Below the pieces are notes generated by a model. The model did not search any database, was not told the origin of the DNA, and worked only from the letters and a program-made list of their open reading frames with translations. From positions 1 to 64,000 of the forward strand of contig JAZDJN010000098.1 of assembly GCA_043803945.1 (NCBI GenBank): a DNA stretch of 64,000 bases. The letters are read 5' to 3'. The position numbers and the translations under genes are program-made. How positions within the stretch are numbered: the first letter of the stretch is position 1; each line of letters opens with the position of its first letter. This DNA comes from a bacterium (GTDB lineage Bacteria; Bacteroidota; Ignavibacteria; UBA10030). Shown here piece after piece: positions 3,042 through 63,161 of this stretch.

Positions 3042-4307
3042 TTAGAGCTGTTCTACTGTTGTCTGATCTAACGTTTCTCTGATATCTGTCTCAAGATCGT
3101 CAGCCGTAAGATCAATGAACAGTGTGCGTAAGAAGAATGTTGAAAGAAAAAGGAGAATGCTGCCGATAAAAAAGACTGGACGAATTCCAAGTCCGGCACC
3201 GATTACTCCACCCATCGGTGATGCAATTAGTGTCGCAAGGATACTGATGCTCGCCGCAATACCCATGATACCTCCACGGCGTTCAAGTACTGTGCTTTTA
3301 TTGACATAGGAGTAGAGAGCAGGCAGCATGCCGCCCAGGCAGAAACCAAACAGCGCACGCAGGATGAGGAGATGATAGACATTCGTCACTAAACCTTGTA
3401 GAATGAAAGAAATGGCCGCACCGAGAAATGCATACGTGAGATTGGATGTATAACTCTTCCGATCGTTTCTTTTTCCCCACCATGGCGAGGAAATGACCAT
3501 CGCAGCACCCGTAATGGAAAATATTGCTCCCGTCGTTGTTGCAACAAGCTTGCTCGATTCGAGAAGCGAATTAATAAATAATGGAAAAATTGGCTGGACC
3601 AGAAACACCGCCATTTGCGAGATGAGAATCAAGAGAAGTGAAATTCTAATTGGTCGCGATGAAAATGCATAATGGTAATTGCTCCAAAGGCTATGCTTCG
3701 GTTTATTGTTCACTTCAACTTTGTTAAACTCTTCTACATACTTAATAATAATAATGCCGGTGATCGTGCACAATCCACCGACGATGAAGAAGATCGGCCG
3801 ATAGCCAACGAGATCGGCAAGAGAACCGCCGATCAAAGGACCGATAACATTGCCGCCGGCCGTTGCGGTTTGAAGAAGTCCTATAGCATAACCCGATTTC
3901 TCCTTGGGAGTGTTCGCGGAGACCAATGCCAATGCAGCAGCGAGGAACCCGCTGATTGCCCCCTGAACCACTCGAAAGAAAAAAAGCATTTCAACACTTT
4001 GTGAGAAGCCCACAAGAACCTGCGAGAGGGCAAGTCCGAAAATGGCTCTAACGGTCATCGATTTTCGTCCATACCGGTCGCCAAGATAACCCCAGACCGG
4101 TGTGAAGAAAAAGGCAGAAAGAAAAACTCCAGAGAAAACAATGCCGCTCCAACGGGTCAAGTCTTCGGGGTCAGTCACCCCCAGCGAGCGAATGAAGAAG
4201 GGAAGGAAGGGCACGACCAGGCTCATCCCCATCATTGCGATAAATTGTGATGCCCAGATGATATAAAGGTTCTTACGCCAGGATTCAATGTTCTTAAACA
4301 GTACCAC
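3042..4307 (-). CDS. MFS transporter (DHA1/MdtG-like efflux)
   Basis: 421 aa, about 12 hydrophobic segments, MFS motif A GYLGDRYGRK. Confidence 0.9.
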   Translation of the reverse strand: MVLFKNIESWRKNLYIIWASQFIAMMGMSLVVPFLPFFIRSLGVTDPEDLTRWSGIVFSGVFLSAFFFTPVWGYLGDRYGRKSMTVRAIFGLALSQVLVGFSQSVEMLFFFRVVQGAISGFLAAALALVSANTPKEKSGYAIGLLQTATAGGNVIGPLIGGSLADLVGYRPIFFIVGGLCTITGIIIIKYVEEFNKVEVNNKPKHSLWSNYHYAFSSRPIRISLLLILISQMAVFLVQPIFPLFINSLLESSKLVATTTGAIFSITGAAMVISSPWWGKRNDRKSYTSNLTYAFLGAAISFILQGLVTNVYHLLILRALFGFCLGGMLPALYSYVNKSTVLERRGGIMGIAASISILATLIASPMGGVIGAGLGIRPVFFIGSILLFLSTFFLRTLFIDLTADDLETDIRETLDQTTVEQL

Positions 4308-8201: not shown

Positions 8202-8461
8202 TAGAGACTCCGCTTAGTGAAGAAATATTAATTCCTGTTAATAATAATGAACAAGGTAAGGGACTTTACACTTATGAACAAGAAAATTCGTAAGAGGAAT
8301 AATAAGAAAAAATGGACAGTTTATCGAAGCATTGCAAATGTATCAGAAGGATCTTCGTGTCGAAACCCGTGCGGCATCGATCTCATCCATGTTTTTGGAA
8401 CCACTCCAATAGAAACAAGGCTCGCAATAGTCTATTCTACCTTTATCTCCCGCTTCGGTTA

Positions 8462-42572: not shown

Positions 42573-44147
42573 ATGAAAACACTCCCTTTTTTACTCCTCA
42601 TTCCCATGCTTCTGTTTAGTCAAAGGCCAGACTGGGTAGGTTCAACAGGCAAAAGCATACGGTATCCAAATCAACTCTACCTGACAGGGTTTGGACTCTG
42701 CAAAGTTAATAAGGAGTTCGATCAGACAAAGAGTATGCAGCGTGCGTTGAGCGATGCACAAGGAAACCTCATACAAAGCATCAGAGTAAACATTCAAAGC
42801 ACCGTTGGATCGACGGTGATTGAACGGGAATCAAAAATCTCTTCCTACTTCAGTAACGCGACACAATCTTCATCGACAATGGAACTTCAAGGACTGGAGT
42901 CGGAAACCTACTACGATGATGACGACGAGGTGTCCCTTGCGCTTGCCTTTATCTCGCGAAGCAAGACTACTTCTATTTATCGTGAGAAAGAAAAGTCGAT
43001 CCAGAAAGAAATCCGGCAGCATCTCGATGCTGGAAAACGGTTTGAGGAGCAGGGTGAGAGGACGAAAGCGCTCAATGAGTACCAGGCATGCTTTCCGTTT
43101 TTCTTACAGCTCCAGGAGGCACAGGCTATTATCATGGTGGCAAGCACTGCAATTGACAAAGGGATGAATGAGCTCGAAGGTCAAGTCGAGAAGGATGAGG
43201 TAAATAAATCGACAGTCCAGGAAGCGATCGATCGTTTAAAAGCAAAACCGATCAATTCACCCGAGGATCTTGCTTGGTACCTTGCCGATGGATTACATGA
43301 GCAAAGCGATCTGAGATCAGCATCGGTACTGGTGTACCCATTTGTCTATCAAGACACAAAGATTGGAAGCCCTTTTTCCCGGTACTTCAAAAACGTTCTG
43401 GAAAGCAAGTTAGTGGAGGTGGCAAAATGGACACCCGTGCAACAGCTCGAGGTAGACAAGCCGAGGACGCGGAATATCACGCTGGAGAGCGCCAAAGCCT
43501 CCGATGCTGAATATATTGTGAAAGGATCGTACTGGATTCAGGAACGCGGCATAAAATTAATCGTCTCGCTCCTGCGTATCCAGGATGGAAAAATTGTAGG
43601 CAGTGTTGAGAAAGTCGTTAGTGATTCTACGCTTAAAAATACCGGGCAGAGCCTAATGCCGCCAAATCTTGAACAAGCTCTTGCCGATGAGAAGAAGCTC
43701 GCTCAGGGTGAAGAGGCTGGTGCGGGCTTAACTATCGATGTTTGGACGAACAGGGGAGCAGAGGATCTCGTCTTCACAAAGGGCGATAGGATGCGTGTGT
43801 TTGTGCGTGTAAATCTTCCCTGCTACATCCGCTTCATCTATCATCTCGCTGATGGAAAGCGTACGGTTCTCGAAAGAAATCACTATATCGACGAATCGAA
43901 AGTGAACAAAGAGTATCATTCGCCTCAGTGGGAATTCGAGTGCGATGAGCCCTATGGAGTCGAGCGTCTGCAGGTTTTTGCCAGCACTGAGGAGTTCTCT
44001 CCGATCGAGACAGAGTACATAAACGGTTATTACTATCTCAAAGAAGACCTTGGTGATTTTCTTCTGAAGCAACGCGGGATGAAGAAAGTGAAGAAGGGAG
44101 TGATGAATACGGAGGCTCGTTTGGCGGTGACAACAATGGAGAGGTAG
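42573..44147 (+). CDS. Exported LPP20-like + DUF4384-like domain protein
   Basis: RPDWV..YLTGFG N-terminus; C-terminal DVWT..FTKGDRMRVFVRVN.PCY..EPYGVERLQVFAS; QRGMK near the end. Confidence 0.65.
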   Translation: MKTLPFLLLIPMLLFSQRPDWVGSTGKSIRYPNQLYLTGFGLCKVNKEFDQTKSMQRALSDAQGNLIQSIRVNIQSTVGSTVIERESKISSYFSNATQSSSTMELQGLESETYYDDDDEVSLALAFISRSKTTSIYREKEKSIQKEIRQHLDAGKRFEEQGERTKALNEYQACFPFFLQLQEAQAIIMVASTAIDKGMNELEGQVEKDEVNKSTVQEAIDRLKAKPINSPEDLAWYLADGLHEQSDLRSASVLVYPFVYQDTKIGSPFSRYFKNVLESKLVEVAKWTPVQQLEVDKPRTRNITLESAKASDAEYIVKGSYWIQERGIKLIVSLLRIQDGKIVGSVEKVVSDSTLKNTGQSLMPPNLEQALADEKKLAQGEEAGAGLTIDVWTNRGAEDLVFTKGDRMRVFVRVNLPCYIRFIYHLADGKRTVLERNHYIDESKVNKEYHSPQWEFECDEPYGVERLQVFASTEEFSPIETEYINGYYYLKEDLGDFLLKQRGMKKVKKGVMNTEARLAVTTMER

Positions 44148-44862: not shown

Positions 44863-44954
44863 AAAAAAAGAAAGCCACCCATCCCCAACTCTCAAGCTGC
44901 GGGAATTTAGCATACAACTATGATAGGCTTTCGACTATAAAAGGAGAAAGTAAT

Positions 44955-46406
44955 ATGAAAATTACTGCTCTGGCATTTTTGATTCTTATAATCATTTATG
45001 CTCATTGCTTTGCTCAACAGAGAGGGATGAAATCCTTTCAGGAGAATAATTCTGAGCAGCGCATTGCTCTTGTTATTGGCAACGGTAGTTACCGCGAGGC
45101 GCCGCTTGTAAATCCCCCCAATGATGCTCGTGCGATAAGCAGTACTCTTCGTACGCTTGGATTCACCGTGATCGAAAAGCTCAATGTAAATCAGGAGCAG
45201 ATGGAAACCGCCATTGGTGATTTTGGTAACCGGCTTAGAAGGGGTGGTGTCGGGTTGTTTTACTACGCGGGTCACGGCGTGCAGGTTAACGGCCAAAACT
45301 TTCTCATCCCGATTGGCGCTGCAATAAACAAAGAGACCGAGGTGAAGTATAAGGCGGTTGATGCGGGACTTGTGCTTGCGCAGATGGAGGATGCAAGGAA
45401 CAGGCTAAACATTGTTATTCTCGATGCCTGCAGAGATAATCCTTTCTCCAGAAGCTGGAGGTCTTCCACGCGTGGTTTGGTAAGCGTTGATGCGCCAAAG
45501 GGGACAATCATTTCGTACGCAACTGCACCCGGCAAAGTAGCGAGCGACGGTGATAGAGGCAATGGACTCTATACGGAGCGGCTGCTTTATTATATCAAGC
45601 AACCCGGATTGGCAATTGAGGAGGTCTTTAAAAATGTTCGGCGCGACGTGCAGAGACGGACAAACGAAGCTCAAACACCGTGGGAACAATCATCGCTCAC
45701 GGGAGATTTTTATTTTGTTGCCGGTACCGGTGAGGCTCCGAAAAAACAGCAAGAAATTGTCTCAGAACCTGAGAAGATAACTGCGACTCCCGATTTTGGT
45801 GTCGATATGGTGTATGTAGATGGTGGTACATTTACAATGGGGAGTAACGATTATGATGATGAAAAACCACCTCATCAAGTTACTGTGCGAAACTTTTCCA
45901 TTGATAAATATGAAGTGACCGTTGCGAAGTTTAAGCAGTATTGTCAAGCGACTAACCGATCAATGCCCGCAGCTCCATCGTGGGGTTGGAACGATAATGA
46001 TCCTGTTGTGAATGTAAGTTGGGAAGATGCAAATGCCTACGCAAAGTGGGCGGGGAAAAGATTGCCAACTGAAGCGGAGTGGGAATATGCGGCAAGAGGA
46101 GGCAACAAGAGCCGTGGATTTAAATATGCCGGAAGTGATGATGAGAATACTGTTGCTTGGAATACGAATAATTCTGGTAGCAAAGTACATCCTGTTGGCG
46201 GCAAGTATCCAAATGAACTCGGCATCTATGATCTTAGCGGTAATGTATGGGAGTGGTGCAGTGATTGGTATGTATCATATCCTTCTGGTTCACAAACGAA
46301 TCCAACAGGTTCCATTAGTGGCCAGAACCGTGTGTTGCGGGGCGGTTCGTGGAACGGCGATTCGAGCGTCCTCCGGGCGGCGAATCGCGTCGGGAGCACA
46401 CCCTGA
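44955..46406 (+). CDS. DGR target 1: signal peptide + caspase-like C14 peptidase + FGE-sulfatase/CLec domain; truncated in VR (intact end would be 46455)
   Basis: AAGGAG RBS; YYAGHG / LDACR dyad; RLPTEAEWEYAARGG, GNVWEW, RVLRGGSW; TGA 46404-46406; GFRCSLDIK* continues in a shifted frame. Confidence 0.92.
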   Translation: MKITALAFLILIIIYAHCFAQQRGMKSFQENNSEQRIALVIGNGSYREAPLVNPPNDARAISSTLRTLGFTVIEKLNVNQEQMETAIGDFGNRLRRGGVGLFYYAGHGVQVNGQNFLIPIGAAINKETEVKYKAVDAGLVLAQMEDARNRLNIVILDACRDNPFSRSWRSSTRGLVSVDAPKGTIISYATAPGKVASDGDRGNGLYTERLLYYIKQPGLAIEEVFKNVRRDVQRRTNEAQTPWEQSSLTGDFYFVAGTGEAPKKQQEIVSEPEKITATPDFGVDMVYVDGGTFTMGSNDYDDEKPPHQVTVRNFSIDKYEVTVAKFKQYCQATNRSMPAAPSWGWNDNDPVVNVSWEDANAYAKWAGKRLPTEAEWEYAARGGNKSRGFKYAGSDDENTVAWNTNNSGSKVHPVGGKYPNELGIYDLSGNVWEWCSDWYVSYPSGSQTNPTGSISGQNRVLRGGSWNGDSSVLRAANRVGSTP

Positions 46407-46444
46407 TACCGGACTCTACTATAACGGTTTTCGATGTTCCCTGG
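46323..46444 (+). repeat. DGR variable repeat VR1
   Basis: Aligns to TR 47883-48003: about 22 substitutions at TR adenines, 1 non-A change, 1-nt insertion. Confidence 0.95.
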
Positions 46445-46496
46445 ACATTAAGTAACACTTTTTGCTGTTAGCCTTTTACACTTGGGTCGAATAAAA

Positions 46497-46838
46497 ATGG
46501 CTGAAAAAGAGGATGTACTTACCAAGACGTACGATCTGCTTTTATACCTTATCCCTCAGCTTGAGAAGTTTCCAAGAGCCCAGAAATTTCTACTTGCTGA
46601 TCGAATCGAGTTGAAAGTCCTCGATATTTTAGAACGGTTACTTGAGGCATACTATTCCCCTCCAGATGCTAAGATGGTACCATTAAAGAAAGCAAATATC
46701 GAGATTGAGCAATTTCGCTACCTTGTTAGGTTGAGTCATGACCTGGGTTTCTTGAGTCATCAAAAATATGGTATCCTCAGCGAAAAGATTAACGAAGTCG
46801 GAAGAATGGTTGGAGGTTGGATCAAGTCGCTCAAATGA
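46497..46838 (+). CDS. avd: DGR accessory variability determinant (four-helix bundle)
   Basis: 113 aa, KTYDLLLYL..KFPR.QKF.LADRI ... EVGRMVGGWIK; directly upstream of RT. Confidence 0.93.
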   Translation: MAEKEDVLTKTYDLLLYLIPQLEKFPRAQKFLLADRIELKVLDILERLLEAYYSPPDAKMVPLKKANIEIEQFRYLVRLSHDLGFLSHQKYGILSEKINEVGRMVGGWIKSLK

Positions 46839-47983
46839 AAACTCATAAGAACTTGTATATGAAACTTTGTTCGTTTGAGAATTTACTTCTTGCCTCAAGG
46901 AAAGCGAGACTCGGTAAGCGAATGAATACCGATGTCGCTCGATTCGAGATCAACCTCGAACATGAGCTTGTGAATCTTGCAAAGGATCTCCAGGATCAAT
47001 CATATCGACCTGGAGAATACCGTGAGTTTATCATCTCTGAGCCAAAGAAGCGCATGATCAGTGCCGCGCCTTATCGAGATCGAGTGCTTCATCATGCCCT
47101 ATGCAATGTCATTGAGCCAATCTTTGAGCGCACATTTATCTCAGATAGTTATGCTAACCGTAAAGGTAAAGGGACACACAAGGCAATTCTGCGGTACTTG
47201 CAATTCGCCCAACACAACACGTATGCCCTGAAATGCGATATACAGAAGTTCTTCCCAAGCATCGACCATCAACTATTAAAGCAGAACATTCGAAAGAAAG
47301 TAGCTTGCAAGAAAACAATCTGGCTTATTGATACTGTTATCGATCACAGCAACAGGCAAGAAGCTGTCTTGAATTATTATTCTGGTGACTCGCTGTTTAC
47401 GCCATTCGAGCGTCGGAAAGGTTTGCCAATTGGGAACCTGACAAGTCAATTCTTTGCCAATGTCTATCTGAATCCACTGGATCATTTTATTAAGGAAGTA
47501 CTGCAGTGCAAGCATTATATTCGGTATGTCGATGATTTTGTACTCTTCAGTGAAGAGAAACAGCAGCTTCAGCGGTGGAAAGAAGAGATAGAGTCATGGT
47601 TGGAATCACTGCGGCTAACGCTTCATCCAAAGAAGACGAGAGTGTTGCCTGTGAATGTTGGACTTTCATTCCTTGGGCATCGAGTTTTCCCGGAATTTCT
47701 TTTGCTCAACAAGGATAATGTGCTCCGGTTTAAGAGGCGATTGAAGAAGATGAGCGCTGGGCTTGTTTCAGGAAATGTTACCATGGAGCATCATCGATCT
47801 TCGATTGCTAGCTGGGAGGGGCATGCAAAGTTTTCAAATACCTATCGTCTTCGAAAAAAGATTTTTAGGGATGGATCCGAATCAGAACCGTGTGTTGCGG
47901 GGCGGTTCGTGGAACAACAAAACGAACAACCTCCGGACAACGAATCGCAACAGGAACACACCCGAAAACCGAAACAACAATAA
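46835..47983 (+). CDS. DGR reverse transcriptase
   Basis: EPKKR.I.A..YRDRVLHH, KCDIQKFF, GLPIGNLTSQFFANVYL, RYVDDF, FLG; ATGA overlap with the avd stop. Confidence 0.97.
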   Translation: MKTHKNLYMKLCSFENLLLASRKARLGKRMNTDVARFEINLEHELVNLAKDLQDQSYRPGEYREFIISEPKKRMISAAPYRDRVLHHALCNVIEPIFERTFISDSYANRKGKGTHKAILRYLQFAQHNTYALKCDIQKFFPSIDHQLLKQNIRKKVACKKTIWLIDTVIDHSNRQEAVLNYYSGDSLFTPFERRKGLPIGNLTSQFFANVYLNPLDHFIKEVLQCKHYIRYVDDFVLFSEEKQQLQRWKEEIESWLESLRLTLHPKKTRVLPVNVGLSFLGHRVFPEFLLLNKDNVLRFKRRLKKMSAGLVSGNVTMEHHRSSIASWEGHAKFSNTYRLRKKIFRDGSESEPCVAGRFVEQQNEQPPDNESQQEHTRKPKQQ

Positions 47984-48003
47984 CGGTTTTCGATGTTCCC
48001 AGG
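47883..48003 (+). repeat. DGR template repeat (TR), overlapping the 3' end of the RT ORF
   Basis: AAC-rich (about 42 A), reads RVLRGGSWNNKTNNLRTTNRNRNTPENRNNNNGFRCSQ; template for VR1 and VR2. Confidence 0.96.
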
Positions 48004-48165
48004 TCTTTCATCAAGCTGTTGCCAGAGCCTTCCTGTCGATCGACAAGAAGGGAGTGCAGCGGAAAGTCCAGGATCTGTTCCCGTGTTGGTGCAGTCAGCC
48101 AACCGAACACAAAGACCAATTCCGGCGCGGTTGGTAGCTTCGGCGAAGACCGTGCCGGAATGTGG
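48004..48165 (+). ncRNA. Putative structured spacer of the DGR RNA, 3' of TR
   Basis: Non-coding gap after TR with hairpin attccggcgcggt...accgtgccggaat (48119-48161); role inferred from the Bordetella DGR spacer. Confidence 0.5.
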
Positions 48166-48193
48166 ACACTAACAGGATAATCATAGGATTGGA

Positions 48194-50071
48194 ATGATAA
48201 TGAAATCACTTTGCTATAGTATTCTGGCGAGCATTCTTCTCTTCGGTAATCTCCACGCTCAAACCGGCAGGGGTATGAAACCGATCTCCATACAAGATGC
48301 TACCGGTAAAGAAGTAGCAATCTACTCCGGCAGTTTTGCCCTTATTATTGGCATGAGTAATTACAGCCAGGGGTGGCCAAGTCTACCCGGGGTTCAGCGG
48401 GATGCTCAGGCAGTCCGCTCAACTCTCGAAACTCAGGGGTTCCGTGTAGAGGTGAAAATGGATCTGGATAAAGCATCTCTCGATAAAGTAATTTCTGATT
48501 TTATCGCCCGGTATGGAGGCGAGCCGGATCATCGCTTACTCTTCTATTTTGCCGGTCACGGATATACTGTGAAATCCAGCTACGGTGATGAACTCGGATA
48601 TTTTGTACCTGTCGATGCACCCCTCCCACGGAAAGATGTTGGGGCCTTTCAGAGCAAAGCGATGGAGATGGCACAAGTAGAGATCTATGCAAAGCGTATT
48701 CAGTCGAAGCATGCTTTCTTTATGTTCGATGCTTGCTTCTCGGGGTCGCTTTTTGATATTTCTCGCGCTGTTCCCGAGGTCATTTCCTATAAGACATCAC
48801 AGCCGGTTCGGCAGTTTATCACTTCAGGCACTGCTGAAGAAACGGTGCCCGATGTGAGTATTTTCCGATCGCAGTTTGAGCGTGCATTGAAAGGTGAGGC
48901 AGATACGGATAAGGACGGTTACGTAACGGGAACGGAACTAGGGGAGTTTCTCCAAAAAACAGTCATCAATTATTCCCGCAGCAGTCAGCATCCGCGATAT
49001 GGAAAAATCCGCAATCCTAATTTGGACAAAGGAGATTTTGTTTTTACACTGGGAAGTACATCTGAGGCATCACCCTCTCCGACAAAGCTTCCAGACAAAA
49101 CAGATTTTTCCATTGAGAAAGAGAAACGAGAGGCAGAAACTGAGCGCACGGCACGCGATGCATGGGCAAAGAATCTGAAAGAGATGGAGGGAAAATATAA
49201 TGAAGTCATCGAATTAGAAAAGACCGATATCTCCGCGCAGCGTAAAGCAGAGGTGTGGAAGAGGTTCCAGCAGGCGTATGCAGATAATAATCCATATAGC
49301 ACACGTGATGATGAGCTTCGAACCAAGGCGGGAGAGAAAGTATCCTTCTGGAATAGAGATGCAAATAAGCCAGCCGAAAAGAAAGCTGCTAAAAAAGAAA
49401 TATCTTCTCCCGACTTTGGAGCAGATATGGTGTATGTTGATGGTGGTACGTTTACAATGGGGAGTAACGATTATGATGATGAAAAACCACCGCATCAGGT
49501 AACTGTGCGAAACTTTTACATTGATAAATATGAAGTGACTGTTGCGAAGTTTAAGCAATTTGTGGATGCAACAGGCTATAAGACCGACGCAGAAAATGGA
49601 GATGGCAGTTATAAATGGACAGGGTCAACCTATGAGAAGAAAGCGGGTGTTGATTGGCGCTGTGATGAGCAAGGCAATAGAAGATCCGAAAGTCAGTATA
49701 ACCATCCGGTCATTCATGTGAGTTGGAACGATGCCAATGCTTATGCAAGGTGGGCGGGGAAAAGATTGCCAACAGAAGCAGAGTGGGAATTTGCGGCAAG
49801 AGGAGGCACCAAGAGTCGTGGATTTAAATATGCCGGAAGTGATGATGAGAATAGTGTTGCTTGGAATACAAGTAATTCTGGTGGCAAAGTACATCCTGTT
49901 GGCGACAAGTATCCAAATGAACTTGGTATCTATGATATGAGCGGTAATGTATGGGAGTGGTGTGCTGATTGGTACGATGCAACTTATTATAGCAACAGCC
50001 CTGAGATGAATCCAACTGGCCCAACAAGTGGTACTCTCCGTGTGTTGCGGGGCGGTTCGTGGGGCTCCTAA
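48194..50071 (+). CDS. DGR target 2: signal peptide + caspase-like C14 peptidase + helical linker + FGE-sulfatase/CLec domain; premature stop in VR (intact end would be 50165)
   Basis: YFAGHG / FDACF dyad; RLPTEAEWEFAARGG; TAA 50069-50071 at the TR AAA codon; extra G at 50135-50137. Confidence 0.92.
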   Translation: MIMKSLCYSILASILLFGNLHAQTGRGMKPISIQDATGKEVAIYSGSFALIIGMSNYSQGWPSLPGVQRDAQAVRSTLETQGFRVEVKMDLDKASLDKVISDFIARYGGEPDHRLLFYFAGHGYTVKSSYGDELGYFVPVDAPLPRKDVGAFQSKAMEMAQVEIYAKRIQSKHAFFMFDACFSGSLFDISRAVPEVISYKTSQPVRQFITSGTAEETVPDVSIFRSQFERALKGEADTDKDGYVTGTELGEFLQKTVINYSRSSQHPRYGKIRNPNLDKGDFVFTLGSTSEASPSPTKLPDKTDFSIEKEKREAETERTARDAWAKNLKEMEGKYNEVIELEKTDISAQRKAEVWKRFQQAYADNNPYSTRDDELRTKAGEKVSFWNRDANKPAEKKAAKKEISSPDFGADMVYVDGGTFTMGSNDYDDEKPPHQVTVRNFYIDKYEVTVAKFKQFVDATGYKTDAENGDGSYKWTGSTYEKKAGVDWRCDEQGNRRSESQYNHPVIHVSWNDANAYARWAGKRLPTEAEWEFAARGGTKSRGFKYAGSDDENSVAWNTSNSGGKVHPVGDKYPNELGIYDMSGNVWEWCADWYDATYYSNSPEMNPTGPTSGTLRVLRGGSWGS

Positions 50072-50154
50072 GCGGGCTACCTCCGGACCTCGAATCGCGG
50101 CAGGATCACACCCGGGTACCGGGACGGCAGTTACGGGTTTTCGCTGTTCCCTGG
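50036..50154 (+). repeat. DGR variable repeat VR2
   Basis: About 27 substitutions vs TR, all at TR adenines, plus one G insertion. Confidence 0.96.
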
Positions 50155-50243
50155 ACTTTAGATAGCGCTTTTTCCTTTTAGCCTTTTACACTTGGGGGGG
50201 ATTGTGCGGGGAAATTTTTTTGGGGATGGTAGATGGGAATAGT

Positions 50244-50643: not shown

Positions 50644-53600
50644 ATGAAATTCCTTACACACCTAATCGCGCTATTCATAGTTCTCTCTCCATTTGCTCAA
50701 GCACAAAAACCGGAGCTGGTAATTCAAACCGGACACACCAACGGGCTCACTTCGGCAGTATTCAGTCGTGATGAAAAGTATGTACTGACGGGGAGTTGGG
50801 ACAACACAGCGAAACTCTGGGATGCCTCAACAGGAAGAGAAATAAGAACATTTGCCGGGCACTCAGAACGCATTTGGTCTGTCGCTATCAGTCCAGATGG
50901 ACGATATGTAGCGACAGGAAGTTATGACAAGACGGCAAAAATCTGGGAGACTTCAACGGGAAAAGAACTGAGGGTATTGACTGGTCATAAGGATGAAGTT
51001 CACTCCGTTTCTTTCAGTCCCGACGGTCAGTATTTAGCAACGGGCAGTTGTGACAAGACAGCGAAGCTATGGGAAACCTCAACGGGAAGAGAAGTAAAGT
51101 CTTTTACTGGACATTCTGAAGACATTTATTGCTTGGCTTTTAGTCCAAATGGACAGTATATGGTGACGGGAAGTTTTGACAAGACCGCAAAACTCTGGGA
51201 GGTATCAACAGGAAAGGAAATGAAGACATTCACTGGACATTCATCCTCGATCAATTCTGTCGCATTCAGTCCTAGTGGACGATATGTGGTAACAGGAAGC
51301 CGGGATAGCACTGCAAGACTATGGGATGTATCCACGGGGAGAGAAGTGAAGACATTGGCAAGGATCTCATCGTGGATTAATTCTGTCGCACTTAGTCCTG
51401 ATGGGATGTATGTGGTGATAGGGAGTTATAATGGAACAATAAAACTGTATGATATCTCTACTGATCAAGAGGTAAGTTCATTTGCCGGACATCCCCTTTC
51501 GGTTACCTCTGTTACTTTCAGTAATAATGGGAAGTACATTCTGTCGGGGAGTTGGGATAGTAAAGCAAAACTTTGGAAGGCATCAACAGGCAGAGAAGTG
51601 ATGAAAATTGCAGGACATTCTTCGGAGATTCGTACAGTCGCATTCAGTTCAGATGGAAGAAATGTGGTAATGGGGAGTGATAGTGTAGCGAAGATTTGGG
51701 AAGCCATGACCGGAAGAGGTTTGCGGGGACTATCTAATCATTCTGGTATCTATTCCGCGGCATTTAGTCAAAATGGGCGGTATGCGGTGACCGGGAGTGT
51801 TGTTAGTGGAATAGCGAGAATCTTCGATGTTTCGACGGGAAGAGAGGTTAGAACATTAACGGGGAAATGGGGCAGCATATATTCCGTAGCCTTCAGCCCC
51901 GATGATCAATATGTAGTAACAGGGAGTATGAATGGGAGAGTAAAACTCTGGGATGTCTCTACAGGAAAAGAGGAGCGAACATTCATAGGTCATTCTGGCG
52001 ATGTCGCTGCAGTAGCGTTCAGTCCTGATGGGCAGATGATTTTGGCGGGGAGCACTCGTGATGTCAAGCTTTGGGATGCATCGACAGGAATAGAAGTGAA
52101 AACTTTGAAAGGTCACAGTAGCCTCATTCGCTCAGTTGCATTCAGCCCCGATGGGAAGGATGTAGTGACTGGAAGCGCAGACAAAACAGCGAAGCTCTGG
52201 GATATCTCAACAGGAGCAGAAGTAAAGACTTTGACCGGCCATTCAGATTGGGTAAATTCCGTTGTATTCAGTTCTGATGGGCGATATCTGGTGACGGGGA
52301 GTTGGGATAAGACTGCGAAACTGTGGGAGGTCTCAACAGGAAAAGAGGTGAGGACATTCATTGGGAGTTCAGGTGGCATCAATTCTGTGGCCTTCAGTCT
52401 GAATGGGAAATATATCGTTGGTGGATGTAAAACTGGCGAGTGCATCATTTGGGATTTGCAGACAGGTATAAAGCTTGCCTCAAGAATTGCACTCGATGAA
52501 AAGGATTGGGTTGTCGTCACTCCGGATGGCCGCTTCGATGCATCGGCAAATGGGATGAAGTTGCTCCACTACGTTCAAGGAATGGAAGTCCTCCCTCTCG
52601 AATCCTTCTTCGAACAATTCTATACACCTAATCTGTTTGCGCGAGTTCTCTCAGGAGAGAAGATCGAAACCACACCCACGGTCGATTTCTCCAAAGCCAT
52701 CAAACTTCCTCCACTCGTAAGGATCGTTTCACCGAAGACAGGAGAGACTTTCACTTCAGATCGAGCTCAAATTAGTGTTGAAGTCACCGATCAGGGTGGG
52801 GGGATCGATGAAATCCGTCTCTATCACAATGGAAAACTTATCTCAGAAGATCAGCGGGGGATGAAGGTCATTGAATCGAAGACAACGAAGATCACAAAGA
52901 CGTTTGATGTCACGCTCCTACCGGGCATCAACGAGTTTAAAATCACAGCCTTCAATATGGAGAGAACCGAATCAGTCCCGGTGTCTCTTTCAATCGAGCT
53001 TACGGCAACGGAAGCTTCAGCAGAACTCTACATACTTGCGATTGGCATCAATCAGTACAAGAACTCAGTGCTCAACCTCAACTATGGAAGGCCGGATGCA
53101 GAAGCATTCTTGCAGGTTGCTGAAAGGAAAGCACGGGGAATATTCAGAGCGATCAAGAAATATGAAGTCTACGATCAACAAGCAACAAAGGTAAACATCG
53201 AAGGCATCTTGACACAGATCATTCAGCTTTCAAAGCCGCAGGATGTATTTCTGTTTTTCTATGCCGGTCATGGAGTGATGAGCGAAGGCGATGCCGCGTT
53301 GAAACCGGATTTCTATCTTATTCCGAGCGATATCACTCAGCTCTATGGGAACGATCGACAGTTAGTCGCTAAGGGAATCTCTGCATCGTTGCTGAAAGAG
53401 CATTGCACGAACATGCGAGCACAGAAGCAACTGGTAGTCATCGATGCCTGTCAGGCTGGAGGTGCAGTGGAGACGTTTGCGATGCGGGGAGCTGCGGAGC
53501 AGAAAGCGATGGCGCAGTTGGCAAGAGCGACAGGAGTTGTCATACTGGCAGCGACGGGCACAGAGCAGTTTGCGACAGAGTTCAAGCAATTGGGTCACGG

Positions 53601-53799
53601 AGTGTTTACCTATGCGTTACTGCAAGGACTCGAAGGAGAAGCCGATGGAAGTCCAAAGGATGGAAAGGTTACGGTGGCAGAGCTGAGAGCGTATCTTGAC
53701 GATCAAATACCTGAGCTGACGAAGAAGTATAGAGGGCAGGCGCAATATCCAGTCGCATATTCAAGAGGAAATGATTTTCCTGTAAGCGCTGGAAGATGA
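50644..53799 (+). CDS. Exported 14x WD40 repeat + Ig-like + caspase-like C14 peptidase
   Basis: Signal peptide (AQA-QK); 14 GH..S.AFSP.G..TGS.D.TAKLWD repeats; FYAGHG / IDACQ dyad; HGVFTYALLQGL. Confidence 0.93.
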   Translation: MKFLTHLIALFIVLSPFAQAQKPELVIQTGHTNGLTSAVFSRDEKYVLTGSWDNTAKLWDASTGREIRTFAGHSERIWSVAISPDGRYVATGSYDKTAKIWETSTGKELRVLTGHKDEVHSVSFSPDGQYLATGSCDKTAKLWETSTGREVKSFTGHSEDIYCLAFSPNGQYMVTGSFDKTAKLWEVSTGKEMKTFTGHSSSINSVAFSPSGRYVVTGSRDSTARLWDVSTGREVKTLARISSWINSVALSPDGMYVVIGSYNGTIKLYDISTDQEVSSFAGHPLSVTSVTFSNNGKYILSGSWDSKAKLWKASTGREVMKIAGHSSEIRTVAFSSDGRNVVMGSDSVAKIWEAMTGRGLRGLSNHSGIYSAAFSQNGRYAVTGSVVSGIARIFDVSTGREVRTLTGKWGSIYSVAFSPDDQYVVTGSMNGRVKLWDVSTGKEERTFIGHSGDVAAVAFSPDGQMILAGSTRDVKLWDASTGIEVKTLKGHSSLIRSVAFSPDGKDVVTGSADKTAKLWDISTGAEVKTLTGHSDWVNSVVFSSDGRYLVTGSWDKTAKLWEVSTGKEVRTFIGSSGGINSVAFSLNGKYIVGGCKTGECIIWDLQTGIKLASRIALDEKDWVVVTPDGRFDASANGMKLLHYVQGMEVLPLESFFEQFYTPNLFARVLSGEKIETTPTVDFSKAIKLPPLVRIVSPKTGETFTSDRAQISVEVTDQGGGIDEIRLYHNGKLISEDQRGMKVIESKTTKITKTFDVTLLPGINEFKITAFNMERTESVPVSLSIELTATEASAELYILAIGINQYKNSVLNLNYGRPDAEAFLQVAERKARGIFRAIKKYEVYDQQATKVNIEGILTQIIQLSKPQDVFLFFYAGHGVMSEGDAALKPDFYLIPSDITQLYGNDRQLVAKGISASLLKEHCTNMRAQKQLVVIDACQAGGAVETFAMRGAAEQKAMAQLARATGVVILAATGTEQFATEFKQLGHGVFTYALLQGLEGEADGSPKDGKVTVAELRAYLDDQIPELTKKYRGQAQYPVAYSRGNDFPVSAGR

Positions 53800-54691: not shown

Positions 54692-55567
54692 GTGAGGAAG
54701 CACAGAATATTGAGAACAGTATTTCAATACATTCTCATGCTTGTGATCTGCAAACCAGTATTTTCTCAAGATGTTCATAGCGGCAAGAACGCTGCTGAAT
54801 CCAACCGAATCAATGCTGGCAGCGAGATGGTTCTTGTTGAAGGTGGGACATTCACGATGGGAAGCAACGAAGGAAACTCCGATGAGAAACCGGCTCATCA
54901 AGTTACAGTGAGCAGTTTTTATATCGATAAGTATGAAGTAACGGTAGCACAGTTTAAACAATTTGTAGATGTCACGGGATATAACACCGATGCTGAAAAA
55001 AGCGATGGAAGTAACATATGGACAGGGTCGACTTGGGAGAAGAAGGCGGGCGTCAACTGGCGGTGTGACGAGCGAGGGAAAAGAAGGCCGGTAAGTCAGT
55101 ACAACTATCCAGTGATCCATGTCAGTTGGAACGATGCAGCGGCGTTTGCTGCATGGGCCGGAAAGCGTTTGCCGACGGAAGCTGAGTGGGAGTTTGCAGC
55201 AAAAGGTGGCAGGCAAAGTAAACGGTATAAATATAGCGGTGGAGATAATCCTGATGCAGTCGGGTGGCTTGATATAAATAGCGGTTGGAAAATACATCCA
55301 CCAGGACAGAAACAACCAGATGAGCTTGGCATTTATGATATGTCCGGAAATGTATTTGAGTGGTGCAGCGATTGGTATGATGGGAAGTACTATAGCACGA
55401 GTCCAAAACAAAATCCTCATGGACCACTCTCCGGCCAATTTCGTGTTCTACGGGGTGGTTCGTGGGTCATCGACTTGGACGCTGTTCGGCCTACCTACCG
55501 CAACGGTGCAACGCCCGAAGATCGGAGCGGTGATTTCGGGTTTCGATGTGCGAAGGCGGTGAAATAG
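54692..55567 (+). CDS. Exported stand-alone FGE-sulfatase/CLec protein, paralog of DGR target 2
   Basis: Signal-like N-terminus; shares FKQFVD.TGY.TDAE..DGS..WTGST.EKKAGV.WRCDE insert with target 2; intact GFRC end. Confidence 0.9.
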   Translation: MRKHRILRTVFQYILMLVICKPVFSQDVHSGKNAAESNRINAGSEMVLVEGGTFTMGSNEGNSDEKPAHQVTVSSFYIDKYEVTVAQFKQFVDVTGYNTDAEKSDGSNIWTGSTWEKKAGVNWRCDERGKRRPVSQYNYPVIHVSWNDAAAFAAWAGKRLPTEAEWEFAAKGGRQSKRYKYSGGDNPDAVGWLDINSGWKIHPPGQKQPDELGIYDMSGNVFEWCSDWYDGKYYSTSPKQNPHGPLSGQFRVLRGGSWVIDLDAVRPTYRNGATPEDRSGDFGFRCAKAVK

Positions 55568-55877: not shown

Positions 55878-57356
55878 ATGAAAAGATATATATCGCTCTT
55901 GATAATTCTGATGTTTATAGCAGTAAAGCTTTGGCCACAGGATCTCTCAGAGTTACGAATTGCAGGGAAAGGAGAATACCTCAAATCGGAGCTTATTAAT
56001 AAAGCCGTAAGAGATGCCAATGGTATTGTCTGTGCCGGGTTGATGATCCTCTCCGATCTCGATGGATTAAGTTATGAATCTAATAATGGCGTAGTGAAAA
56101 TTAATCGGAGCCCTGGAAAAGATCTGCTCTTTCTCTCGCCGGATGAGCGTATGGTGACAGTGTTGAAAACGGGCTATAAGCCGTTGAAGGTGATCATTAA
56201 TGAGTTTGGCATCAAGTTCGCAAGCGGCACAGTGTGGAAGCTTGAGGTAACAGGGAGTAAAAAAGTTGAACAGGTCCCGATTGTTGTTCGAGTTGATCCA
56301 TCAGACGCAGTTATCATACTTGATAGCGTTTCGGTTACGAGTGGTAGACCAATTACCGTTCAAGAAGGAAAGCATACCGTAAAGATTCTCAGAGATGGAT
56401 ATAGATCTGTAACCGAACAAATCACTGTCTCACCAAAAGAGAGAGAATTCCCTTTCACATTGAAGAAAGATAAAGTCAGCCTGAATGTACTCGTTTATCC
56501 TGCTGATGCATCGGTAGCAGTCGATAGTATTTCACTCATTTCAGGAAGAGGATTCCCGACAGAAATTGGTCTTCATAAGCTCAGAATAGAGAGAGATGGA
56601 TATGAACCTGAGATGCACGATATAGAGGTATCGAAAATAAATAATTCGTTTTCCTATCAACTCAGGAAGAAAAAGTACACAATAAGTATTATTGGAGATC
56701 CATCCGATGCAATAATGAGTGTCGACTCAATCAGAGTACAGGGAAACACCACTGTAGCAGAATGGGGTTACCATGTGCTCCGGGTTGAAAATAGCGGATA
56801 CGAATCTCTCTCGAAAGAGATCGAAGTGATGTCGAAGCAAACATCATTTTCTTACTCACTAAACAAAATTCGTACTTACAGCTTTGAGGTAAGCTCGGGA
56901 ATTGGATTCATAGCGCTTGAGGGAAAGCCTAAAAGTCCACCGCCAATTCTCTCTTTTCAATACAGGCTCTCGAATATGTTTACTATCGAGTTAGCAGGTG
57001 GTAGCGTTGATGCAGGAGACTCCATCAAGTATGACAACTTCACATTTGGGTATCTGTCGAACAAATATACCATTGTGAGCTTAAGGGGACGTATCAATAT
57101 TTATCAGACAGGATCTTTGGAAACGTATGTAGGAGCATGCATCACCTTTGTGTTAAACGACAGAACATTCACTTCTTTGCCACTCAATAACAGTTCAACG
57201 AGATATTATGACTCTTATATGAATAGTGATGTTGATAGATTATTTGGAGGCGGATTTATTGGGGCTCGTTATTGGGTATTCAATAAATTCGGTCTTGTCC
57301 TAGAGACTGGACATCACTTTATAAATTTGCGTGCTGGAATTACATTCACATTCTAA
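55878..57356 (+). CDS. Exported PEGA-repeat protein with probable C-terminal outer-membrane beta-barrel
   Basis: Three V.P.DA...D...G.H.L.I...GY repeats; amphipathic beta C-terminus ending ITFTF. Confidence 0.72.
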   Translation: MKRYISLLIILMFIAVKLWPQDLSELRIAGKGEYLKSELINKAVRDANGIVCAGLMILSDLDGLSYESNNGVVKINRSPGKDLLFLSPDERMVTVLKTGYKPLKVIINEFGIKFASGTVWKLEVTGSKKVEQVPIVVRVDPSDAVIILDSVSVTSGRPITVQEGKHTVKILRDGYRSVTEQITVSPKEREFPFTLKKDKVSLNVLVYPADASVAVDSISLISGRGFPTEIGLHKLRIERDGYEPEMHDIEVSKINNSFSYQLRKKKYTISIIGDPSDAIMSVDSIRVQGNTTVAEWGYHVLRVENSGYESLSKEIEVMSKQTSFSYSLNKIRTYSFEVSSGIGFIALEGKPKSPPPILSFQYRLSNMFTIELAGGSVDAGDSIKYDNFTFGYLSNKYTIVSLRGRINIYQTGSLETYVGACITFVLNDRTFTSLPLNNSSTRYYDSYMNSDVDRLFGGGFIGARYWVFNKFGLVLETGHHFINLRAGITFTF

Positions 57357-61172: not shown

Positions 61173-63161
61173 TTGAAATATTCTATCAAACTAATCGGCA
61201 TTGTTTCCTTTTCATTTATTATCCTCTCTCTTTTCCAAAGCTGTACGGAAAAAGAGTTTAACAATCCTGTTGATCCGAATGTAAAGATTCTGCCTCCTAC
61301 AAACCTCCTGCTTTCCCTTACGACCGATACATCTGCGACAATAAGCTGGAGCGACCCAAATAACTTTTCTCTTGAACAGCAGAAGAGTATTCGATATGAG
61401 ATACAACAGAGCACAGACCAGAATACTTACACGCCAGTAAAATCTGTACAAGGGGATACGACATCTGTTATTATAAGAGGTACATTCCTTTCAACGAATT
61501 CTTATTACTTCAGGATAAAAGCTGTTGCGGGTATTAATGCTTCCGGGTATGCAGATGCTGTGAGTGGAAGTATTACCTTTTCAGCCCCAACGAATGTTCA
61601 GGTGACAGCGATAACAGAGACACGAGCTACAGTAACTTGGGCGTTGAACAATCCAATTGCCACGATGGTGATGATTGAGCGAAGCGCTAATGCAATGATA
61701 GGATTTGTACTCGTTGATAGTGCGACCGCTTCAAACAATTCAAAGTTAGTAACAGGAAGATATAGTGCTGATAGTACTTATTATTTCAGGATACAGGCGA
61801 AATCCAATATCAATAAGAGTGTCTACTCGGCAGTAGCTTCAAACCAATATGTATTTTCGGCACCAACAAACCTTACAATATCCTCATTGACAGAGACACA
61901 GGCAACATTAAGTTGGGCACTTAACAATCCACTTGCAACGATCGTGATGATCGAGCGGAGCACTGCTGCTTCTTCCGGCTATAGAGCCGTTGATAGTGTC
62001 TCAGCGAGCCTAACGACAAAAGGGATAGTTGGTATTTATTGTACGGACTCGACATATTATTTCCGTCTTAAGACAAAGTCATCCATCAATCAAAGTAGTT
62101 ACACACCCGCGGTTTTACAGAAACTTCTGTTCCCAGCCCCTTCCAATCTTCTGGTAACTTCATTTTCAGCTACATCTGCTTCTTTACAGTGGAAGGATAA
62201 TAGCTCGTTTGAGACAGGATTTGAAATCAACTCTGGAATCGACAGTACAAATCTATCTCTCATAAAAACTGAGCTAGCAAATTCAACTGCATCAGTGATT
62301 AATAGTGCGTTTGATATTAAGAAAGTCTACTATTTCCGTGTCCGTGCAAAGTCTTTATATAACATTTCAGCTTTCTCATCTGCTGAGATTGCTCCCCTTG
62401 TTCCCACAGGTATGGTTTTTATTAAAGGCAGTACATTCACTGCAAACTCTACTCCGATTACTATCAGCAGTTTCAATATAGACCAATATGAAGTGACGTA
62501 CGAGCTTTGGACCGATGTAAGAAATTGGGGATTGACACATGGCTATACCGATTTGCCTTCGGGACGAAATGGCTACAATCCAATTGGAACAAACAATCCC
62601 GTCACAGAGGTAAACTGGTATGACATCGTTAAATGGTGCAATGCCCGTTCGGAAAAAGATGGCTTGACACCTGTATATTATACAAACAGCTCACAGAACA
62701 CAGTCTATCGCACAGGTCAAACAGATATTAATAATGATGCGGTGAAATGGACGGCAAATGGCTATCGTCTACCGACGGAAGCAGAGTGGGAGTATGCAGC
62801 CCGTGGAGGAATCCAAACGCATGGATACACCTACAGTGGCAGCAACACGATAGAGGACGTGGCATGGTATAATTCAAACTCTCCAAACAACACCCATCCC
62901 GTTGGACAAAAGAGTACAAACGAGCTTTGTATTTATGATATGAGCGGGAATGTATGGGAGTGGTGCTGGGACTGGCATGGGTCTACATATCCCTCAGGTG
63001 GGACTATGGATCCGAAAGGACCCTCGACAACCCAATCGTACCGTTTGCTGCGTGGCGGTTCTTTCGACGGCAGCGAGTACGTCTGTCGGGTAGTCATCCG
63101 CAGCTACAACCTCCCTTCCGGCTGCAACTTCTTTTACGGTTTCCGATGTGTCCAGGATTAA
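61173..63161 (+). CDS. Lipoprotein with FN3-like repeats + FGE-sulfatase/CLec domain; probable target of a second DGR
   Basis: Lipobox FQSC; repeated (A/P)P(T/S)N(L/V)...YYFR units; YRLPTEAEWEYAARGG; NNC-codon-rich 3' end ending YGFRCVQD; TTG start. Confidence 0.88.
   Translation: MKYSIKLIGIVSFSFIILSLFQSCTEKEFNNPVDPNVKILPPTNLLLSLTTDTSATISWSDPNNFSLEQQKSIRYEIQQSTDQNTYTPVKSVQGDTTSVIIRGTFLSTNSYYFRIKAVAGINASGYADAVSGSITFSAPTNVQVTAITETRATVTWALNNPIATMVMIERSANAMIGFVLVDSATASNNSKLVTGRYSADSTYYFRIQAKSNINKSVYSAVASNQYVFSAPTNLTISSLTETQATLSWALNNPLATIVMIERSTAASSGYRAVDSVSASLTTKGIVGIYCTDSTYYFRLKTKSSINQSSYTPAVLQKLLFPAPSNLLVTSFSATSASLQWKDNSSFETGFEINSGIDSTNLSLIKTELANSTASVINSAFDIKKVYYFRVRAKSLYNISAFSSAEIAPLVPTGMVFIKGSTFTANSTPITISSFNIDQYEVTYELWTDVRNWGLTHGYTDLPSGRNGYNPIGTNNPVTEVNWYDIVKWCNARSEKDGLTPVYYTNSSQNTVYRTGQTDINNDAVKWTANGYRLPTEAEWEYAARGGIQTHGYTYSGSNTIEDVAWYNSNSPNNTHPVGQKSTNELCIYDMSGNVWEWCWDWHGSTYPSGGTMDPKGPSTTQSYRLLRGGSFDGSEYVCRVVIRSYNLPSGCNFFYGFRCVQD

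Follow-up and report, generated by a model that had tools for sequence, protein, structure and literature searches.

Stop codons and one-base insertions in the variable repeats of both caspase-lectin targets of a diversity-generating retroelement in an Ignavibacteria genome bin

A complete diversity-generating retroelement (DGR) lies on a contig (JAZDJN010000098.1) of a genome bin from the Ignavibacteria lineage UBA10030 (GenBank assembly GCA_043803945.1). The window, by which we mean the whole stretch of DNA that was analysed, comprises the first 64,000 nucleotides of this contig, and all coordinates refer to it and to its plus strand. In a DGR a reverse transcriptase (RT), together with the accessory protein Avd, copies the RNA of a template repeat (TR) into cDNA, misreading adenines, and the cDNA replaces the variable repeat (VR) of each target. 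The order of the cassette, as assigned from Pfam matches and sequence, is target 1, Avd, RT, TR and target 2. Both VRs contain a net insertion of one base together with an in-frame stop codon, and it is the origin of these four lesions that concerns us here.

The locus has an RT of the DGR clade, an Avd, an adenine-specific TR/VR pair, and a VR at the C-terminal end of a target with a domain of the C-type-lectin/formylglycine-generating enzyme (FGE) type. The RT gene (46835..47983) is intact and matches PF00078 (RVT_1, 2.1e-28); the sequences YVDD and LTSQ are legible in its product, and we take these to be the YVDD and SQ motifs of the enzyme. The avd gene (46497..46838), which is also intact, matches PF22296 (bAvd) at 8.5e-20, with a score of 71.7 bits where the cut-off is 40. 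Over the tract common to both VRs the TR (47888..47996) contains 38 adenines and 71 other bases, and its IMH*-like end (where IMH denotes initiation of mutagenic homing) extends to about 48003. Both VRs end ...GTTCCCTGGAC, and the corresponding TR end is ...GTTCCCAGGTC. This difference fits the usual IMH/IMH* pattern, with the VR end as putative IMH. When the whole 5.54-Mb bin was searched with the TR, the matches were the TR itself (100%), VR1 (80%) and VR2 (78%), plus seven further matches that were short, with E of at least 0.025. There are just two VRs for this TR in the genome, and one RT of this kind in the bin. The RT open reading frame (ORF) overlaps the greater part of the TR in a different frame (47888-47983), so that its last ~32 codons are at the same time template; most relatives of the RT align just to residue 344-346 of its 382.

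The two targets are built from the same pair of domains. Target 1 (44952..46406) matches PF00656 (Peptidase_C14, 1.1e-39) followed by PF03781 (FGE-sulfatase, 1.6e-56), the latter having the C-type-lectin fold. Target 2 (48200..50071) matches the same families at 8.2e-19 and 6.8e-65, respectively; its start is placed at the ATG at 48200 in the protein collection, and the ATG at 48194 is possible too. Both caspase domains retain GHG and DAC motifs, presumably the catalytic dyad. Judged by eye, the N-termini of both proteins are hydrophobic and are probably signal peptides, and the targets would then be exported. Each ORF stops early, target 1 at a TGA (46404-06) and target 2 at a TAA (50069-71). 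The normal stop of target 1, which follows the sequence NGFRCSLDIK, lies at 46453..46455 and is now out of frame.

VR1 (46328..46437) differs from the TR by substitution of 21 of the 38 adenines, one non-adenine mismatch and a net gain of one base. Its TGA stands opposite the TR codon GAA (47964-66). Two alignments are equally good: a T is inserted at 46404 and a C-to-G change lies at 46411, or a G-to-T change lies at 46404 and the insertion is at 46411-15. With either placement the ORF is closed by the TGA and the GFRC ending is shifted into another ORF (46027..46455). VR2 (50038..50147) has 24 of the 38 adenines substituted, no difference at any of the 71 non-adenine positions, and again a net gain of one base. 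Its TAA falls exactly opposite the TR codon AAA (47919-21), and there is an extra G at 50135..50137, where GGG replaces the GG of the TR. The original prediction had described the one-base insertion in VR1 with its TGA and the loss of GFRC from the frame, as well as the TAA and additional G of VR2, and all of these we find.

All the lesions of both VRs lie within the rewritten tract and adjoin AAC runs. Both extra bases have adenine substitutions on either side, and therefore fall inside the segment replaced by cDNA. Taking the VRs together, 45 of 76 adenine positions are substituted and just 1 of 142 non-adenine positions is changed. Outside the tract the target ORFs are open over 484 and 623-625 codons, and no lesion is found in the ~3.3 kb of target coding sequence beyond the rewritten tracts. 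A deletion in the TR, as a single cause of both +1 VRs, was rejected: the extra bases do not coincide in position, and reading on in the TR frame yields the GFRC ending of the family. Reading the TGA of VR1 as selenocysteine or tryptophan was rejected likewise, as the frame is shifted anyway and long table-11 ORFs cover 90% of the genome.

The consequence for the proteins can be gauged from the fold. The targets share a fold family with formylglycine-generating enzymes (PDB 6MUJ and 2Q17; 6muj at 3.4e-43) and with the variable domain of Treponema denticola TvpA (PDB 2Y3C; 2.6e-22), and in the targets, as in TvpA, it is the VR that makes up the C-terminal portion of this fold. The alignment with 6muj ends at the sequence GGSW, about 40 residues short of where the fold finishes, and the end of the lectin-type domain is therefore lost in each truncation. 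In contrast to the structures of TvpA and the FGEs, the targets carry an N-terminal caspase domain, and in both of them the fold has its last 17-32 residues absent or garbled.

How do the stops relate to the template? The AAA at 47919..47921, the third codon after the tryptophan of GGSW, is the sole AAA, AAG or AGA codon in the target frame of the TR, and hence the only one from which a stop is accessible by change of adenine, just as had been predicted. As a source of stops it accounts for the TAA of VR2 but not for the TGA of VR1. The latter faces GAA, and cannot come from adenine mutagenesis alone because it requires either that a T was inserted or that a G, not an adenine, changed to T. 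Codons of the AAA/AAG/AGA type are strongly depleted in natural TRs according to three reports (bioRxiv 10.1101/2025.03.24.644984; PMC12875486; PMC10907252). The frequency of conversion of AAA to a stop is given as about 1% for the BPP-1 enzyme, compared with 6.36% expected under unbiased misincorporation (PMC12875486), and the DGRec preprint states that AAA "will frequently produce stop codons" (bioRxiv 10.1101/2025.03.24.644984).

The conservation of this codon in related TRs had been proposed as a check on its significance. To place the window among related elements we collected 160 loci with related RTs (numbered here with the prefix L) from genome_contigs and metagenome_contigs, and found TR/VR pairs at 97 of these (66 pairs in 50 loci and 52 pairs in 47 loci), pairs being sought on the same strand only, here and throughout; the RTs adjoining these pairs are 43-67% identical to that of the window. 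Among 77 labelled TRs, including that of the window, the third codon after GGSW is AAT in 43, AAC in 18 and AAA in four. Reading also those TRs that have no VR on their contig adds one more AAA (L098), giving 5 of 83 overall and 5 of 14 in the two RT clades nearest the window. In a FastTree tree of 144 RTs the window falls in a clade of nine rows (support 96), where AAA is found in the window, L101 and L098, and AAT or AAC in L094, L096, L014, L095, L097 and L166. In the second clade, of six rows (support 99), L034 and L108 have AAA, L107, L127 and L130 have AAT or AAC, and L141 is unreadable. The closest relative (L094, with an RT 67% identical) has AAT, and the distribution of AAA needs at least three changes on the tree. 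The codon is thus recurrent in this part of the RT tree, as far as these TRs can be read, but it is patchy and appears not to be conserved.

Among the 68 loci whose pairs are ungapped and framed, 5 have a stop-accessible codon of any kind within the tract, and in a small sample of relatives none of the eight VR codons opposite AAA, AAG or AGA is a stop. A Pfam scan of 87 related targets found a caspase domain in four (L034, L051, L065 and L101). Two of these four (L034 and L101) are served by AAA templates; the remaining 83 targets of the scan include one such locus (L108). The association of caspase with AAA is suggestive, and comprises two loci that are not independent.

How frequent are broken VRs in related elements? 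After removal of duplicates 105 distinct VRs were available, and indels were scored by net length inside the tract. Labels assigned by script were corrected by alignment and translation, such that L026:3494 is +3 overall, L096 is +1, and L124 and L140, labelled 'edge' before, are in frame. Six of the 105 are frameshifted (L026:196, both VRs of L057, L090, L096 and L142), and seven contain in-frame indels (L026:3494, L033, L037, L076, L124, L140 and L162). In the five broken VRs whose alignments were inspected (those of L026, L057, L090 and L096) the indels adjoin A runs, and that of L096 has a neighbouring non-adenine change, as in VR1. Wu et al. (2018; PMC5758913) report differences of length between TR and VR in 25 of 372 DGRs, 11 of them frameshifting, with 74% of indels adjoining AAC. 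The frequencies in our set of assembled sequences agree with these. Since indels that keep the frame are no rarer than those that shift it, the raw rate of slippage is suggested to exceed the rate at which frameshifts survive, and the occurrence of two frameshifts in one element would therefore be less improbable if selection were relaxed. The window was, besides, chosen as odd-looking from a very large scan, and some rare coincidence is therefore to be expected somewhere. The same survey includes a DGR of the Armatimonadota type with an 18-base insertion relative to its TR; the same VR is found in seven assemblies (L033, L115, L117, L119, L121, L122 and L123), and is invariant across those samples.

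We suggest that both VRs were broken by the retroelement itself and are real null alleles, collateral damage that is tolerated, and we regard this as about as probable as not. The one codon of the TR that adenine mutagenesis can convert into a stop would have become TAA in VR2, and in both VRs the polymerase would have slipped by one base beside an AAC run. Both caspase-lectin proteins would thereby lose the final strands of the lectin fold, in the dominant clone or in a sizeable share of the sample, and would be dispensable under the conditions sampled. With RT, Avd, TR and the 3′ ends of the VRs intact, later homing could overwrite the lesions. What we observe is the layout of the cassette, where the lesions lie and of what kind they are, and how often such damage occurs in relatives; that the lesions originated during reverse transcription, are present in the population and can be reversed is what we infer. 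The confinement of the lesions to the tract, the single change among 142 non-adenine positions, and the integrity of RT, Avd, TR and the upstream codons of the targets make this look like recent writing by the DGR rather than slow decay. The original prediction is supported in part: the active and indel-prone retrohoming that it proposed fits lesions that lie in the rewritten tract, where we find them beside AAC runs. Its other suggestion, an ON/OFF switch, is unsupported as a purpose-built device, as discussed below.

A number of observations weigh against this interpretation. Four lesions in two VRs far exceed what independent events would give at the base rates of frameshift (~3-6% per VR) and stop (1-6% per VR); the excess reflects either relaxed selection, an unusually sloppy RT, or artefact. 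The evidence for the lesions is the sequence of the assembled contig, and the proteins of the locus form singleton clusters in a collection of 15 billion proteins (three of six exact sequences queried are absent from it, probably owing to the choice of start codon). There is no independent assembly of the strain or of a near-identical locus among the sequences searched, where the RT most similar to that of the window is 60% identical in genome_contigs and 67% identical in metagenome_contigs. Finally, when the surveyed assemblies are classed by record names only, frameshifted VRs number 3 of 18 in those that look long-read and 3 of 87 elsewhere. These figures serve less as a rate than as a warning that consensus artefacts occur in VR regions. 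One of the long-read-looking bins (L057) holds a two-target DGR in which both VRs (3779-3892 and 8280-8396) are frameshifted, by a +T creating TAA in one and a -A in the other. A further bin named in this style has one VR (L026, 196-272) with two insertions.

It might be that many VR variants were merged during assembly into a path or consensus found in no individual cell, and that the extra bases, and perhaps the stops as well, arose in this way. The confinement of the lesions to hypervariable tracts would be explained in this way, as would the simultaneous damage of two VRs, which is improbable under independent biology and has its parallel in L057. The character of the bin argues otherwise. 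It consists of 118 contigs, the smallest of 2.1 kb, and its N50 is 77 kb; the 91-kb contig is unbroken across both VRs, and neither a 16S nor a 23S rRNA gene is found in a bin rated 100% complete. Widespread indel errors are ruled out by long ORFs that cover 90% of the bin with a mean of 382 codons. From the absence of rRNA, the N50 and the lack of any sign of general indels, the bin was probably assembled from short reads, and cleanly so. In a short-read de Bruijn assembly each k-mer is present in the reads, and the conserved stretches between adenines, at less than 10 bases, are too short for chimeric joins at the usual k. Moreover, 55-63% of VR adenines are substituted, where a mixture of numerous variants would have kept A at most of these positions; by this measure each VR is a clean, heavily substituted haplotype and not a column-wise mixture. 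Wu et al. (PMC5758913), too, encountered frameshifted VRs in their survey of GenBank genomes. A consensus artefact, which the original prediction had itself named as an alternative, is weakened by these considerations but kept as a rival, and we consider it somewhat unlikely. Given the clean and apparently short-read bin we favour real null alleles, in what is an evenly poised judgement.

If the alleles are real, they might be the mark of decay, with the DGR inactive or its targets no longer needed and both genes young pseudogenes. Both targets are null with two lesions apiece, VR1 has its one non-adenine change, and the element is rare among relatives, an RT of this kind being found in 4 of 60 related genomes (E <= 1e-30), which is compatible with gain and loss. 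Yet the machinery is intact, all but one of the non-adenine positions are unchanged, the ~3.3 kb of coding sequence outside the tracts is free of lesions, and the 3′ ends of the VRs match each other while differing from the TR in the manner usual for IMH and IMH*. Decay we therefore think unlikely. At the other extreme the lesions might be selected. The original prediction had raised a reversible ON/OFF switch for potentially harmful proteases. In such a scheme the AAA and a slippage-prone context would be kept so that homing silences and re-opens exported caspase-lectin proteins that may harm the cell itself, as a form of phase variation. That AAA recurs at the same position in the two nearest RT clades despite its depletion in natural TRs, that half of the caspase-type targets have such templates, and that both targets are OFF together would all fit, and in reporter assays a defective target has been shown to be repaired by a DGR (PMC12875486). 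However, AAA is patchy and absent from L094, the VR codons of relatives opposite stop-accessible codons contain no stop, the stop of VR1 is not derived from AAA, and the link with caspases comes from two loci that are not independent. A selected switch is therefore improbable. We likewise doubt strongly that a sub-group of DGRs acting on exported caspase-lectin fusions keeps AAA at the third codon after GGSW as a phase-variation device. Were it so, each homing event would carry a chance of a few percent that a protease goes OFF, the next could restore it, and both paralogues would here have been caught OFF.

The preferred reading, tolerated damage by the element itself, can be set against known systems. 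In the catalogue of Wu et al. (PMC5758913) there are, as here, one-base differences of length between TR and VR beside AAC runs that shift the frame, and non-adenine substitution in one target with none in the other, so that the patterns differ from target to target. Unlike the cases of that study, both targets of one element are frameshifted here, each with an in-frame stop. Those authors regard the shifts as possibly providing extra mutagenic capacity, whereas here the conserved GFRC is cut off and the result is null-like. In reconstituted BPP-1 DGRs the AAA of a TR can be converted to TAA, TAG or TGA (PMC12875486; bioRxiv 10.1101/2025.03.24.644984), and the change in VR2 is exactly AAA to TAA. 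Those systems use a phage enzyme in engineered E. coli, while the present case would be one from nature, in a chromosomal DGR. A natural case of conversion of AAA to a stop was not found in a literature search that had supplements outside its scope. For multicellular bacteria, Dore et al. (2024, PNAS; PMC10907252) describe DGR-diversified sensors of conflict systems, in which FGE/C-type-lectin VR domains are associated, by fusion or linkage, with caspase-like peptidases, NACHT/STAND NTPases and TIR domains. The targets here are similar, and relatives of this RT diversify NACHT, nSTAND, TIR, KAP and caspase fusions. The rule in that paper that TR codons avoid nonsense outcomes is broken by the present TR at one codon. 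Unlike those described there, the targets of the window are probably exported rather than cytoplasmic, to judge by their signal-peptide-like N-termini.

Some further features of the locus deserve mention. The FGE/lectin modules of the two targets (45780-46330 and 49400-50040) are 67% identical over 220 aligned positions with one 30-residue gap, and share long identical runs; their caspase domains are just 28% identical. It seems that two old paralogues have exchanged the variable module, or that it was duplicated from one to the other. Neighbouring genes at 42573-44147, 50644-53799, 54692-55567, 55878-57356 and 61173-63161 are made of related parts. They encode a DUF4384 protein, a 1051-residue WD40 protein, a PEGA-domain protein, and two more FGE-sulfatase proteins, one of which has an fn3 domain; the search of the bin with the TR gave no match in these additional FGE genes. 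A search with target 1 for other caspase-FGE DGRs returned 79 loci, mostly matching in the FGE domain only, with the best matches to this domain in Ignavibacteriota bins. It gave five genuine TR/VR pairs (L197, L208, L220, L242 and L244), and two candidates (L198 and L227) were discarded as low-complexity repeats.

Downstream of the VR stop there is a tandem motif, CTTTTAnnC-TTTTAC(A/C)C, at 46456-46478 and 50166-50188. It lies about 25-45 bases past the GFR codons, and by a strict pattern is found in 32 of 106 VR flanks, including those of L094, L096, L099, L101, L032, L044, L110 and L118, every one of them from the half of the RT tree to which the window belongs. In the Chloroflexota half the VR flanks have runs of TTCTG-like repeats instead. 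The motif may be a clade-specific element, a candidate for target recognition or for termination.

As it stands the finding is of an ordinary type of DGR irregularity that has already been catalogued. Frameshifted VRs and non-adenine changes are recorded by Wu et al. (PMC5758913), and the risk of stops at AAA has been measured (PMC12875486; bioRxiv 10.1101/2025.03.24.644984). Broken VRs were three to five times commoner in long-read-looking bins in our small survey, and an apparent pseudogene among the DGR targets of a metagenome bin therefore calls for a look at the reads before it is given a meaning. What sets the present case apart is the simultaneous loss of both paralogous targets, together with a stop that is the outcome predicted for AAA, in a chromosomal element from nature. 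Should these alleles be real, they would provide a natural example of the cost of DGR mutagenesis, paid both as a nonsense outcome at AAA and as frameshifts by slippage, in a class of target, the caspase-lectin fusions, that is thought to act in pathways of cell death or conflict.

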